Positions 26,607 to 29,918 of a stretch of 46,929 nucleotides of DNA are shown here, in pieces. This DNA comes from Mycobacteriales bacterium (GTDB lineage: Bacteria; Actinomycetota; Actinomycetes; Mycobacteriales; DASULA01): the NCBI GenBank assembly GCA_036566245.1, contig DATCWR010000108.1, positions 1 through 46,929 on the forward strand, in the 5' to 3' direction. A program made the translations under genes and the position numbers. Numbering within the stretch: the stretch's first letter is position 1; each line of letters opens with the position of its first letter. The notes under the pieces were generated by a model, which made no database searches, was not told the origin of the DNA, and worked only from the letters and a program-made list of their open reading frames with translations.

Positions 26607-27065
26607 TCAGTCGAAGATCTGGGACAGGGTGGCCTTCGAGCGCCAGCCCAGGTGTTCGGGGGTGGTGGGGCCCCGGCGGATGCGGATCTCGACCCGGTAG
26701 TGCACCCGCTGGAAGGATCCCGCCTCCACCAGCACGGGCACTTCCGCCGCGGCCGGTTCGCACACCTCGATCTGGTGTAGGCCGGGCCGCAGCGGATACC
26801 ACCACCCCGACCAGTTCGCCGGCACCTCCCGGCCGTCCACCCGCGCGGTCGGGGGCGGTATCCAGACGTCGTAGTTGGCTGTTCCCGCGACCACCCGGTC
26901 ACCGCGCATCACCTCGATGCTGCTGGTGAACGAGTACTGACAGGCGATCGCACCCCAGCCGCCCGGCAACTCCGGCGGTTCGGGGGGCGGGGTGTCTCCG
27001 CGTTTTCGGCCGCGCAACGGGGTGACGACGTTGTCGCCGAGGAACCGGGGTTTGGTGACGGTCAA
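26607..27065 (-). CDS. hypothetical protein, paralogous to the N-terminal domain of the upstream 216-aa protein
   Basis: TTG start overlaps the upstream stop (TTGA at 27062-27065). Shares PP-x-LP-x-G-x-GA and VDG...W...LxPGxHxxEV segments with ORF 27062-27712. No TM segment. Confidence 0.5.
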   Translation of the reverse strand: MTVTKPRFLGDNVVTPLRGRKRGDTPPPEPPELPGGWGAIACQYSFTSSIEVMRGDRVVAGTANYDVWIPPPTARVDGREVPANWSGWWYPLRPGLHQIEVCEPAAAEVPVLVEAGSFQRVHYRVEIRIRRGPTTPEHLGWRSKATLSQIFD

Positions 27066-27712
27066 CGAACACCCTTCCGTTCCGGTCGCGGTCCGGGTTT
27101 GCCGTGGTGCCGGTACACCGCGACCGACCCGACGCTGACGGCGGCCACCAGTGCGACGGTGAACAGGATCGCGGTGCCGTCAGCCGACAGACCAGCCTGC
27201 CCAGCGATCACCGCACCGGCCACACAGCTCAGGAGGGACACCAGAATCAACACGAAGTAGGCCATCGGGTTCGATGCCCGGCCCGGCGGACGTTGCGGTC
27301 CCAGGCCCAGTGCTCCCGGGGATACCCCGTCCAGCGCGGCGGCGTACTCGACCGGAACGAGTTGGCCTGGTGCGACGGTCACCTGGATGGTTCGCATCGA
27401 CCATTTGGACTGCACCTCGACCAGGTGTTCACCGGCCGGGAGCACGATAAACACCTCACCCCAGCATCGGCAGGCCGGCTTCCCGTCCACCCCCACCATG
27501 GGCTCGGGCGTGTAGCGTTCCGCTGGCGATGGGCACCAGGCATACAGCGCCACGGCGCCGTGTCCCTCCGGCAGTCGTGGTGGCCGGTCGGCCCGGTCGT
27601 TGGCCAACACCGGGTAGGGACTGTCCGGATGGGCCAGGGTGTTCAGCGTCACGGGTCCCTCACCGATCCTCGTCCAGGGCACGGTCGATCTGCTCACCTG
27701 ACGGCCGGTCAT
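27062..27712 (-). CDS. hypothetical membrane-anchored protein (soluble N-domain + 2 C-terminal TM helices)
   Basis: N-domain ...PPRLPEGHGAVALYAW...VGVDGKPACRCWGEVFIVLPAGEHLVEVQ. TM region AYFVLILVSLLSCVAGAVIAG ... ILFTVALVAAVSVGSVAVY. The start is uncertain: ATG 27712 overlaps the upstream gene by 53 nt, and GTG 27652 is the alternative. Confidence 0.5.
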   Translation of the reverse strand: MTGRQVSRSTVPWTRIGEGPVTLNTLAHPDSPYPVLANDRADRPPRLPEGHGAVALYAWCPSPAERYTPEPMVGVDGKPACRCWGEVFIVLPAGEHLVEVQSKWSMRTIQVTVAPGQLVPVEYAAALDGVSPGALGLGPQRPPGRASNPMAYFVLILVSLLSCVAGAVIAGQAGLSADGTAILFTVALVAAVSVGSVAVYRHHGKPGPRPERKGVR

Positions 27713-28763
27713 GTCCGCGGGAGCCCAGATAGGTGCTCAGGTCGTTGACGGCGTTGTTGGCCACCTGGACCCCGGGGGACAGCCAGGTGCGCCAGTCGGT
27801 GAACAGGTTGCGTACGGGCACGCCAGGCCCGTGCCAGTCCCGCTGAGCCAGCCCGTTTGTCCCCAGGCGACGGAAGGATTCCTCCGCCCTTGTCATACGG
27901 TCCAGGTGAATCCGTGTCAGCATCGCGCGGAGTCGCCCGAGCAGGGTGACCACCCGGTCCACGAACCGCACCGCCCGGGTGGTCGACTCGGCCACCTCGA
28001 CGGTGGTGGCCGCGCCGGCCGCGGCGGTGGAGGCCCCCGCGGTCGGGATCGCCACGGCCATCGCCGCGGACCAGGTGAACACCAACCACTCCACCAGGGT
28101 GGACAGCACGCCGATCACCAGGCCCTGGGCGATGGCCATCAGGGTCCTGGCGATGCTCATGATCACCGTGAGTTTCTGCACCTCGTCGGTCAGACCGGTG
28201 ACCCCGCCGGCGAACTCGTGCAGTCGTTGCTTTGCCGCGTCGGCGGTTCGACCCTGCCAGCCGAGGAGTCCCTGGTCGGCGGCCTGCTTGATCTCGTCGG
28301 CGAGCGGGGTCAGCGCGGCGGCAACCCGCCCCCATCTGGCGATCTCGGCGTCCATCCGTTCGGCGTTGCCGGTGACCAGACCGAGCAGGTCCTCCAACGG
28401 TTGCACCACGTCGACCAGGAAGGTCAGGCCGGAGCTGATCAGGAAGTTCAGCGGATCGGCGGCATAGGCCACGATGTTCGCGCCGAGGTCGGCGACGCCC
28501 CCTCCGATATCGGCGAGCTCTCTCCAGTCCGGGTCGTCGGAGGCCAGGTGTGCGCTTTTCTGGATCGCCGTGGTCAGGCCGCCCAGTCCGGGGATGTCCT
28601 GGGTCGGGTCGAACCGCAGGACGTCGTACCCGCCGACCGTGACCGCGCCCGACCCACCCGAGCCGTTCCAGTCACCCCGCACCCCGATCCCGGCGAACGA
28701 CCCCCCGCCGGAGGACAGGTCGTTGGTGACATCACTGTCCTTCGGATCACGTTCGTCGGCCAT
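27660..28763 (-). CDS. WxG-motif helical protein with central hydrophobic segment (EspA/EspE-like layout; T7SS substrate candidate)
   Basis: Gly-rich N-terminus, then a helix-turn-helix with LLGWQGRTADAAKQRL. This is followed immediately by LTVIMSIARTLMAIAQGLVIGVLSTLVEWLVFTWSAAMAVAIP. The C-terminal ~100 aa are unassigned. Confidence 0.6.
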   Translation of the reverse strand: MADERDPKDSDVTNDLSSGGGSFAGIGVRGDWNGSGGSGAVTVGGYDVLRFDPTQDIPGLGGLTTAIQKSAHLASDDPDWRELADIGGGVADLGANIVAYAADPLNFLISSGLTFLVDVVQPLEDLLGLVTGNAERMDAEIARWGRVAAALTPLADEIKQAADQGLLGWQGRTADAAKQRLHEFAGGVTGLTDEVQKLTVIMSIARTLMAIAQGLVIGVLSTLVEWLVFTWSAAMAVAIPTAGASTAAAGAATTVEVAESTTRAVRFVDRVVTLLGRLRAMLTRIHLDRMTRAEESFRRLGTNGLAQRDWHGPGVPVRNLFTDWRTWLSPGVQVANNAVNDLSTYLGSRGHDRPSGEQIDRALDEDR

Positions 28764-28806
28764 GCCACTCCAACAGCGCTTGAATCTTTTTCATTTTTGG
28801 CCGTGT

Positions 28807-29127
28807 TCAGTTGAGTAATTTGTTGATGGCCTCGATGGAACTGGTGAGTGCGTCGTTGGCGCCCTGGTAGTTCCGCGCGGTGCAGTCGAGGGCGTCGACC
28901 CGGTCAGCCAGCGCCTCACCCATCAGTTCCAGATGTCGGTACACGTCGTCGGCGGCCTGCCAGTAGACCGCCGCCATCGGCGCTCCCACCGCGCCCCAGA
29001 TGTACCACTCGGGGTTGGCATCCTGGGCGAGCGCGAGGATGCCGGCGGCGTGTTGGCGCAGTTCGGCCAGCCGGCTCACGCAGGAGGCAATCTCCTGGTG
29101 GTCGACGGAGAACCCGTGGTCGCTCAC
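28807..29127 (-). CDS. EspC-like / DUF2580-type small helical protein (T7SS-associated)
   Basis: 106 aa, all-helical. The C-terminal ARNYQGANDALTSSIEAI resembles the EspC C-terminus AKIYSEADEAWRKAI. GTG start overlaps the upstream stop (GTGA). Confidence 0.6.
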   Translation of the reverse strand: MSDHGFSVDHQEIASCVSRLAELRQHAAGILALAQDANPEWYIWGAVGAPMAAVYWQAADDVYRHLELMGEALADRVDALDCTARNYQGANDALTSSIEAINKLLN

Positions 29128-29918
29128 CGGTGGCCTCGCCTGTTTCGGTCGTCGTCCGGCCGCGGTTCTGGCGGACTGGCTGTCTGCACCAGATCGAGGG
29201 TCGGCAGGGTCGGCAGAGTCGACCCGGAGAACTCCTGTCCCTGTTCGGTGGCCCGCAACGCCGCCTCGGCCCGGGCACGTTGGATCGTGCCCAGCACCAG
29301 GCGGCCCAGGTTCTTCGGACCGTGCCGCAGTGCCGTGTCCTCGATGTGGATGTCCCGCACGGCGCCACCCGAGCGCACGGTCACCTCGATCGAACCGTCG
29401 GCTGAACGGGCCGACGTGGTCGCGTCGGCCAACTCCTCGCGAACCGTTACGTAGCCGTCGAGGGAGCGGTCCGAATCCGCCCGCAGCCGTTCGAGTAGTG
29501 CCTCTGGTCCCTCACCGGCCCGGTCACCTCGGAGAGGTTCAGTGGTTCCGGTCGAGCAGGTCGGCGGACCCACGGACTTCGGCGGCTGGGGCACGGATCC
29601 GCTCAGCAACGCGACCAGGTGGGTCAGGTCGTCCCCGCCCGTGCCGTCAGTTCTGTCGGTCCGGTCGCCGACCGTGTCGAGGTCGGCGCCGAGTCTCTCG
29701 TCGAGTTCCGATGTCGCCTCGACGATCGTGCTGGCGATCAGGCCGGCCAGGGTGCGCCCGTTGTGGCGCATGGCCCGGTCGGTGAGTTTCAGTCTGGTGA
29801 TCGCGCCTCCCGGGCTCACCGTGACCGAGACCGCATGGTCGGCCGAGGCCACCGTGACCGTGGATCGCTCGATGATGGCACGAAGCCGCTCTGTCTGGCC
29901 GAAATCGAACTTCACCAT
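29124..29918 (-). CDS. protein with two tandem YbaB/EbfC-like domains
   Basis: Repeat 1: STVTVASADHAVSVTVSPGGAITRLKLTDRAMRHNGRTLAGLIASTIVEA. Repeat 2: TSARSADGSIEVTVRSGGAVRDIHIEDTALRHGPKNLGRLVLGTIQRA. ATG 29918. The longer tracked ORF (to 30371) is Arg/Pro-rich filler. Confidence 0.7.
   Translation of the reverse strand: MVKFDFGQTERLRAIIERSTVTVASADHAVSVTVSPGGAITRLKLTDRAMRHNGRTLAGLIASTIVEATSELDERLGADLDTVGDRTDRTDGTGGDDLTHLVALLSGSVPQPPKSVGPPTCSTGTTEPLRGDRAGEGPEALLERLRADSDRSLDGYVTVREELADATTSARSADGSIEVTVRSGGAVRDIHIEDTALRHGPKNLGRLVLGTIQRARAEAALRATEQGQEFSGSTLPTLPTLDLVQTASPPEPRPDDDRNRRGHR

Follow-up and report, generated by a model that had tools for sequence, protein, structure and literature searches.

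The window analysed here is a 46,929-nt stretch of DNA from a Mycobacteriales bacterium (contig DATCWR010000108.1), and its subject is a five-gene operon on the minus strand at positions 26607–29918 that resembles the cargo modules of type VII secretion systems (T7SS). In the direction of reading, g1 (29124–29918) encodes a tandem YbaB-domain protein of 264 amino acids (aa), g2 (28807–29127) a 106-aa helical-hairpin partner of the EspC/WXG100/PE type, g3 (27660–28763) a large helical protein of 367 aa that is a candidate secreted effector, g4 (27062–27652) a protein of 196 aa if a GTG start is used, or of 216 aa if an alternative ATG start extends the gene to 27712, and g5 (26607–27065) a 152-aa soluble paralogue of the beta-sandwich domain of g4. 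An earlier interpretation made from the letters alone (the sequence-only reading) had described five tightly packed minus-strand genes at this site as an orphan module like the mycobacterial espA-espC-espD operon. The five open reading frames (ORFs) are indeed present at these positions. Their GC content at codon position 3 is 0.78–0.88 compared with 0.44–0.55 at position 2, the coding signature of a genome with ∼69% GC.

The genes are joined by very short junctions: g1 and g2 share a GTGA overlap (29124–29127), 43 nt separate g2 from g3, and g4 and g5 share a TTGA overlap (27062–27065). Between the stop codon of g3 (TGA, 27660–27662) and the GTG start of g4 (27650–27652) lies a gap of 7 nt. 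The sequence-only reading had counted 8 nt here, and its other junctions, including a g3/g4 overlap as an alternative, agree with ours. A GAGGGA ribosome-binding site is found 5′ of the GTG, and use of the alternative ATG (27710–27712) would create a 53-nt overlap with g3. An NCBI contig from a metagenome-assembled genome (MAG; GCA_036821525.1) has identical calls for the five genes, with g4 in the 196-aa form; its proteins match those of the window, with g5 differing by one residue (99.3%). The operon is real, and its genes are genuine and kept in other genomes. Scans of the operon region and the window for a promoter consensus, a terminator or an Rfam element found none. The ∼600-nt region upstream of the operon contains an 84-aa ORF on the plus strand (30128–30382), divergent from g1, which the MAG annotation calls as a 69-aa gene; among the related loci it is shared only with L002, the closest relative (68% aa identity), the other match (L001) being the MAG contig of the same genome.

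A genome-wide scan for the g3 family confirmed 151 loci, and its 80 best matches (79 distinct loci, identified by L numbers) were kept for analysis; the neighbouring genes were identified by tblastn and iterative profile searches over the ORFs of these kept loci. In nearly all of the 79 related loci g1, g2 and g3 follow each other in this order with short gaps or overlaps, and because it recurs in 79 independent genome loci the gene order goes beyond chance. Conservation of the neighbourhood, which had been proposed as a check for all five genes, was found for this g1-g2-g3 core. The trio occurs in Micromonosporaceae, Pseudonocardiaceae, Actinopolymorphaceae, Actinomadura and Glycomyces, with genera including Micromonospora, Asanoa, Longispora, Catenuloplanes, Phytomonospora, Actinopolymorpha, Amycolatopsis, Lentzea, Saccharothrix and Actinophytocola. 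The g3 family comprises 1699 clusters at 50% identity (E ≤ 1e-3), 1102 of them with E ≤ 1e-10. Its members are mostly annotated as ‘hypothetical’, some as ‘WXG100 family type VII secretion target’ or ‘type VII secretion target’. The expectation that such a module would be unusual outside mycobacteria has therefore to be given up, as 151 confirmed loci in several families and 1699 clusters speak against it. A tblastn search with g3 against plasmids and phages gave no match; there is thus no evidence of mobility and the family is chromosomal.

Several Amycolatopsis loci carry tandem arrays of the module (L054, L055 and L060), and the Asanoa loci have DUF5691 and DUF5682 genes as neighbours. In many Pseudonocardiaceae (Amycolatopsis and relatives; L034–L047, L054–L060 and L079) large ORFs sized like RpoC and RpoB stand within a few kb of the module. 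ORFs of ∼1315 aa beside the Amycolatopsis loci had been considered as EccC candidates and turned out to be RpoC (L037, 14945–18898) and RpoB (L035, 16051–19689). This suggests a conserved chromosomal position of the module in the family, the assignment at the other loci being based on ORF size.

The first gene of the trio, g1, matches the Pfam family PF02575 (YbaB_DNA_bd) in two stretches with 66.5 bits against a gathering cut-off of 25.5 (E = 2.5e-18). The repeats span residues ∼10–85 (29664–29891, minus strand) and ∼159–232 (29223–29444, minus strand), and the two halves of the protein share 36% identity over 70 aligned residues (E = 3e-9), so that the two YbaB/EbfC-like repeats noticed in the translation are borne out. 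Scored with NCBIfam TIGR00103, the equivalog model of housekeeping YbaB/EbfC, g1 reaches 25.2 bits, below the cut-off of 49.45. With this score and a 264-aa tandem architecture instead of a single ∼100-aa domain, g1 does not qualify as the housekeeping nucleoid protein. The search covered 81 sequences, namely the window and 80 loci, and 78 of them have a g1 counterpart upstream of g2-g3. This counterpart comes in three forms: the tandem fusion seen in the window, two adjacent genes (L018, L020, L024, L026, L028 and L042) and a single-domain protein, the form found in Pseudonocardiaceae. Sequence searches with g1 and g3 against PDB chains returned nothing relevant.

The second gene, g2, was found upstream of g3 in all 81 sequences. 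An alignment of the family (92 sequences of ∼105 aa, gathered from related loci) shows a turn with W44 (90/92), G45 (92/92) and G48 (90 of the 90 rows with a residue there, two rows being gapped), followed by Y55 (92/92) and, near the C-terminus, Y87 (91/92) with D or E four positions later (89/92), a YxxxD/E motif. In the window the turn motif W44-G45-x-x-G48 is encoded at 28984–28998 and the C-terminal Y87xxxN91-D92 at 28852–28869, both on the minus strand; N at +4 and D at +5 are common to the window copy and its nearest relative (L002). The EspC model PF10824 (T7SS_ESX_EspC), a profile that also cross-matches ordinary WXG100 proteins, is matched by 34 of the 92 family members at E ≤ 0.01 (best 4e-7), WXG100 by 27 and EspB_PE by two. 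The likeness of the g2 C-terminus to EspC, one of the claims of the sequence-only reading, may thus hold at family level but is seen neither in the window copy, which alone has no Pfam match at E ≤ 1, nor in a direct profile comparison with EspC (see below). Domains resembling g2 are also embedded in far longer ORFs in the vicinity of other YbaB genes (L033, 3823–5571; L038, 4271–5548; L049, 4662–6632; L062, 11780–13312). These ORFs may be fusions, for example toxins with a g2-type targeting domain, or over-extended calls.

The third gene encodes the large partner. g3 contains the motif LLGWQGRTADAAKQRL with a WxG turn at W169-G171 (28251–28259, minus strand), both residues being invariant in 74 of 74 homologues, and residues 198–237 form a strongly hydrophobic helix of ∼40 residues. 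The arrangement of helix, WxG, helix and hydrophobic stretch described in the sequence-only reading is present in the window copy. The best-conserved blocks are residues 101–133 (DPLNFL...LVTGN; in the window DPLNFLISSGLTFLVDVVQPLEDLLGLVTGN, 28365–28463, minus strand) and residues 226–253 (W..W.AAMAVAIPTAGASTAAAGAAT), the latter within the stretch of hydrophobic helix and small-residue motif at residues 198–253 (AIPTAGASTAAAGAAT, 28005–28172, minus strand). In the 74-member alignment D103, P104, P122, D125, G132, W169, G171, F184, A238, G243, S245 and A249 are invariant, the C-terminal third (residues ∼260–350) is variable, and a C-terminal tail ...LDxxR is conserved. WXG100_2 (PF25547) is matched by 39 of the 74 members and WXG100 (PF06013) by 23; the window copy remains sub-threshold for WXG100 (PF06013, E = 0.013; TIGR03930, E = 7e-4). 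The PPE model PF00823 is matched by 16 of the 74 (E ≤ 0.01, best 2.5e-5), below the gathering threshold for most of them, and the window copy is unmatched. Domain-profile scans of g3 and its family detected no known toxin domain. In the AlphaFold2 (AF2) model of g3 only the region ∼130–220 is confident; it folds as a helix-turn-helix with helices 134–165 and 172–237 at predicted local distance difference test (pLDDT) scores of 80–92. Foldseek matches of this model to chemoreceptor (top match 1qu7), BAR and Vipp1 structures were set aside as generic long helices at E ≥ 0.1, the model being too weak to use. Of the fold assignments that had been proposed for checking, YbaB for g1 and the WXG100 type at family level were recovered by profiles, but the structure search with g3 gave no significant match.

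The sequence-only reading had noted that no Ecc core gene lies in the window. This is correct for the entire 47 kb: scans of the flanks show other gene types only, namely type II polyketide synthase (PKS), acetyl-CoA carboxylase, S41 peptidase, HAD, GNAT, helix-turn-helix (HTH) and Fic genes, transporters and similar. The connection to the secretion machinery comes from relatives. In Phytomonospora sp. NPDC050363 (Micromonosporaceae; L028) a single locus contains EccB, a first module, YbaB genes, a second module, an S8 mycosin, two WXG100 genes, EccC and EccD. A MAG locus (L018) contains EccC, a WXG100 gene and a module in the order g1-g2-g4-g5-g3, and in P. endophytica the module adjoins EccC (L042 is adjacent to L082). 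A scan for EccC found at least 569 relatives, and among 80 EccC loci 40, from many genera, have g1-type YbaB genes within 6 kb. With the linkage in L028, L018 and L042/L082 and the YbaB genes near EccC, an association of the YbaB family and the module with the ESX machinery is well supported by genomic context, and an export via EccC/EssC is predicted. Genomes in which the module is orphan and EccC lies on another contig are represented by M. globbae (L003 and L093), Actinopolymorpha sp. B11F2 (L022 and L149) and Amycolatopsis speibonae (L073 and L135). Further along the L018 locus (11207–21009) a second YbaB gene (11207–11746) and a WXG100-like gene (11977–12348) precede an ORF of 2874 aa that runs off the locus and may encode a giant T7SS substrate.

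The genes downstream of g3 are more variable. g4 and g5 had been regarded as two appended paralogues, and at profile level they are paralogous (reciprocal iterated-profile E of 1e-22 to 1e-28, direct BLASTP being weak at E = 0.009), but they are not universal and represent one of four alternative downstream families. The AF2 model of g4 (mean pLDDT 79) shows strands at residues 15–117 and transmembrane helices at 129–153 and 157–183. The protein accordingly consists of an N-terminal beta-sandwich (residues ∼15–117; 27302–27610, minus strand) and a two-helix membrane hairpin (residues 129–183; 27104–27268, minus strand) with a basic tail after it, and g5 has the beta-sandwich domain at residues ∼22–146 (26628–27002, minus strand). 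By the positive-inside rule the beta-sandwich domains of both proteins are inferred to face the cytoplasm. In many relatives (L018, L020, L023–L026, L028, L030 and L042) g4 and g5 are one fused ORF of ∼355–385 aa with the order domain, two transmembrane helices, domain, and the fusion also occurs in P0082–P0096. Neither protein has a Pfam match. A word-indexed search with g4 found seven relatives and a profile search 19, every one named hypothetical. Foldseek neighbours of g4 are generic beta-sandwiches (HGSNAT luminal domain, PepT1 extracellular domain, RtkS and AlgF, E ∼4e-4) that provide no functional lead, and a PEGA or carboxypeptidase-regulatory-like domain, guessed by eye, had two matches at E = 0.04 and is not claimed.

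Across the loci, the gene that begins a few bases from the stop codon of g3 is always one for a membrane protein, and these proteins fall into four families unrelated to one another. The four are the g4 family, including a two-helix remnant of 77–99 aa in Asanoa; an N-terminally anchored family of ∼265 aa; another N-terminally anchored family of ∼200–230 aa; and a polytopic family of ∼475 aa. The presence of unrelated membrane proteins at this one position hints at an effector-immunity or effector-partner pairing. The layout matches the effector-immunity pattern of the ESX-4 eat loci, in which downstream transmembrane or lipoprotein immunity genes occur across Actinomycetota (PMC13444075), and that of TspA/TsaI (PMC7456083).

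In order to place the module among known systems we compared it with the espA-espC-espD loci of M. uberis, M. attenuatum and M. simiae. The EspA, EspC and EspD profiles contained three sequences each, which limits their sensitivity; the initial EspA query was 67% identical to M. uberis EspA. The likeness to espACD, and also to espE-espF-espH and espL, lies in a dispersed operon off the core ESX locus that brings together a YbaB-fold protein of the chaperone type, a helical partner of ∼100 aa and a larger one with a WxG hairpin followed by a hydrophobic run; in both EspC and g2 the tyrosine stands at position 87 of a ∼105-aa chain. EspD, EspH and EspL are YbaB-like and stabilize Esp substrates (PMC6107294, PMC6109436, PMC6319747), and the sequence-only reading is correct in calling EspD and EspH similar to YbaB (PMC6107294, PMC6109436). 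An hhalign comparison of the g1 C-domain family with three EspD sequences gave a probability of 69% (E = 4e-5), the alignment covering 51 columns of the YbaB core, and a hidden Markov model (HMM) search gave E = 0.11. For the g3 family against EspA the probability was 3%, and the g3 HMM did not match M. uberis EspA; for the g2 family against EspC it was 2%, with an alignment only around YxxxD/E. The 74 g3 members matched nine Pfam families, among which an EspA/EspE-family model (probably PF18879) was absent, the presence of such a model in the library being unconfirmed, and none of the three weak Pfam matches of the window's g3 is an EspA/EspE-family model. As these comparisons with EspA and EspC are negative, ‘espACD-like’ denotes an analogous architecture and not membership: the architecture and the three fold types are those claimed, but homology to EspA and EspC was not detected, and the sole alignment, of moderate probability, is that of the YbaB core with EspD. 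The inverted gene order and the duplicated YbaB unit had been recognized correctly, since the chaperone gene is last in espACD and first in the module, where the YbaB unit is tandem. Further differences are an extra N-terminal region of ∼130 residues with its own conserved block in g3 compared with EspA, a host from a monoderm-type actinomycete lineage without ESX-1, and the extra membrane-protein genes at the 3′ side.

In gene order the nearest parallel described so far is Mab_2773c-2772c-2771c of M. abscessus, which is induced by SigM together with ESX-4 and has been studied by transcriptomics and modelling (PMC13491425). By description it contains a YbaB/EbfC ‘EspL-like’ protein, a small protein and a larger helical protein in the same order as g1-g2-g3, the pair being modelled as a four-helix-bundle ESX substrate; structure searches liken its large protein to the helical bundles of chemoreceptors, as they do the g3 model (1qu7), whereas downstream genes of the g4/g5 type are not described there (PMC13491425). 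With PE/PPE pairs the module has in common a ∼100-aa partner with YxxxD/E, a larger partner with WxG and an adjacent gene for a candidate dedicated chaperone, and some family members match the PPE and EspB_PE models, mostly below the gathering thresholds, but its chaperone candidate has the YbaB instead of the EspG fold and the PE/PPE signature motifs are lacking. EatA/TapA/EatI (PMC13444075) and TspA/TsaI of S. aureus (PMC7456083) likewise have one or more small helical partners upstream of a large protein with a helical N-terminus and a membrane protein or lipoprotein gene directly 3′ of it, and the payload of TspA is a membrane-active hydrophobic domain (PMC7456083), which is suspected for g3 as well. 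Unlike these toxin loci, the module has no recognizable enzymatic or polymorphic toxin domain, its presumed payload is conserved, and a YbaB gene is included.

On the basis of the gene structures, motifs, family memberships, gene order and core linkage described above we favour, with moderate confidence, the reading that the module encodes substrates of an actinobacterial ESX-type (type VIIa) system in a dispersed (‘orphan’) operon. EccC-type translocases read a bipartite signal in Esx, PE/PPE and Esp pairs. In the proposed mechanism g2 and g3 would form a four-helix-bundle heterodimer to which g3 contributes the WxG turn and g2 the C-terminal YxxxD/E helix, and the combined motifs would serve as such a bipartite signal for an EccC-type translocase encoded elsewhere. 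g1, which may mimic a YbaB dimer in one chain, would act as a cytosolic chaperone that keeps the hydrophobic g3 soluble and stable before export, in parallel to EspD for EspA/EspC and EspH for EspE/EspF. Once exported, g3 would insert into the membrane or envelope via its conserved hydrophobic, small-residue-rich segment. g4, together with g5, would be the local form of the variable membrane protein next to g3 and would probably bind or neutralize it in the membrane of the producer as an immunity or docking partner.

Several findings weigh against the substrate-operon reading. The g2 and g3 proteins of the window, taken alone, stay under every Pfam and NCBIfam threshold. The C-terminal motif of the window's g2 reads Y87-Q-G-A-N91-D92, with N and not D/E at +4 and D at +5, which might reflect a shifted register or a weaker signal. 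For g3 the AF2 model as a whole is poor, with a mean pLDDT of 58.6, and Foldseek of this model against the PDB gave no significant match, with local matches to EsxA/CFP-10 at E > 1. g4 and g5 are present in a subset of the loci and absent from Longispora, Pseudonocardiaceae and Asanoa, the last of which keeps a two-helix hairpin of 77–99 aa; their absence from Asanoa, Longispora and all Pseudonocardiaceae loci implies that they are not essential to the core function. Finally, the presumed payload region of g3 is conserved and not polymorphic across families, which is as compatible with a structural or housekeeping function as with a toxin.

The last point bears on two alternatives at once. A more specific version of the substrate-operon reading sees the module as an antibacterial toxin-immunity locus, in which g3 would be a membrane-depolarizing or pore-forming T7SS effector and the g4 hairpin, perhaps with g5, would protect the producer. 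The ∼40-residue hydrophobic helix with A238, G243, S245 and A249 is reminiscent of glycine-zipper membrane toxins, a membrane protein from four unrelated families directly follows g3 in different clades, only the two-helix hairpin of g4 survives in Asanoa, the module forms tandem arrays in Amycolatopsis, and TspA/TsaI (PMC7456083) and the ESX-4 eat loci (PMC13444075) provide precedents. Yet across families the conservation of g3 is highest in the very segment supposed to be toxic, no known toxin domain was detected by the profile scans, the predicted cytoplasmic beta-sandwiches of g4 and g5 are not obviously needed for immunity, and the differences between downstream families may merely track taxonomy. 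We therefore hold this version to be possible but unlikely. The strong conservation of the g3 core would be easier to understand if the module were a structural or accessory part of the secretion apparatus or envelope, or a developmental factor, and no effector at all. EsxAB have been linked to Streptomyces sporulation. The family is very widespread (1699 clusters), the Phytomonospora module sits between ESX core genes where mycobacterial loci have PE/PPE/Esp genes, and the module parallels EspA/EspC and EspE/EspF, which are required for ESX-1 function and envelope-associated, EspC having been reported to form envelope filaments (cited in PMC6107294). A structural part would be expected neither at a distance from the ESX locus, where the module is often found, nor in several copies per genome; a variable downstream membrane partner is unexpected for a core component as well, and homology to EspA/EspE was not detected in our comparisons, which makes this alternative rather improbable in our view.

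It is also conceivable that the operon has no relation to T7SS, g1 being a nucleoid DNA-binding regulator of the YbaB/EbfC type that acts on its neighbours and g2–g5 unrelated helical or membrane proteins. The sole above-threshold match among these proteins of the window is YbaB_DNA_bd, a DNA-binding family, g2 and g3 are individually sub-threshold, and the window is without an Ecc gene. We consider this explanation very improbable: g1 falls well under the YbaB/EbfC equivalog cut-off (25 versus 49 bits) and is a tandem fusion as opposed to a housekeeping protein of ∼100 aa, its family stands beside EccC in half of the 80 EccC loci, it is always followed by WxG and YxxxD/E proteins, and in Phytomonospora (L028) the module lies inside a full ESX locus.

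Type VIIa secretion is understood almost wholly from pathogenic mycobacteria, and far less from the ESX-4-like systems of soil actinomycetes with their cargo and its purpose. The module offers a widespread candidate substrate set of ∼1700 clusters with a candidate chaperone, a split signal, a membrane-directed segment and a variable partner. The general principle is already known, and some homologues are already named as type VII secretion targets, so the finding is an extension and not a surprise. What is new is the conserved trio of YbaB protein, small partner and WxG membrane protein, the tandem form of YbaB, the variable downstream membrane protein and the beta-sandwich and hairpin proteins g4 and g5. 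If the substrate-operon reading is true, the idea of a YbaB-type chaperone would extend from ESX-1 accessory proteins to the phylum, and the module would offer a way into the study of T7SS-mediated competition or of the envelope in genera such as Micromonospora and Amycolatopsis. More speculatively, and with little confidence, the trio could represent a large and ancient group of ESX substrates among antibiotic-producing monoderm actinomycetes, in which a YbaB chaperone, in the window a pseudo-dimeric tandem, would escort a pore-forming interbacterial WxG toxin, and clade-specific membrane immunity proteins such as g4/g5 would protect the producer. If so, EspD/EspH/EspL and the EspA/EspE-type substrates would be specialized descendants or analogues of an older system, and YbaB-fold proteins a general class of type VIIa chaperones beside EspG.

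The rest of the window contains several other gene groups. A type II PKS set on the plus strand (12840–22017) includes a polyketide cyclase, a cupin, a ketosynthase (13799–15136), an anthrone oxygenase and an ABM monooxygenase, and is followed by acetyl-CoA carboxylase subunits; the region probably directs the synthesis of an aromatic polyketide or a spore pigment. One of its ORFs has matches to both a PP-binding domain (acyl carrier protein) and a polyketide cyclase and may be a stop-to-stop over-extension across two genes. Convergent with g5 lies an ORF of 1200 aa (22950–26564, plus strand), annotated as Peptidase_S41 on the matching MAG contig, which we take to be a tricorn-like peptidase. 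An antisense ORF (22137–24002) was rejected as a GC-rich artefact except for its LigB dioxygenase part. On the other side of the operon an HTH_17 (excisionase-type) gene (31807–32346, plus strand) stands beside a Fic/DOC-domain gene (32419–33591, minus strand), and the two might form a regulatory or toxin-like unit. Near the beginning of the window a minus-strand pair (8793–10856) consists of a sortase-domain gene (8793–9887) directly preceded by a 322-aa ORF without a Pfam match, and a multicopper oxidase gene (7465–8733) lies beside the sortase-domain gene.

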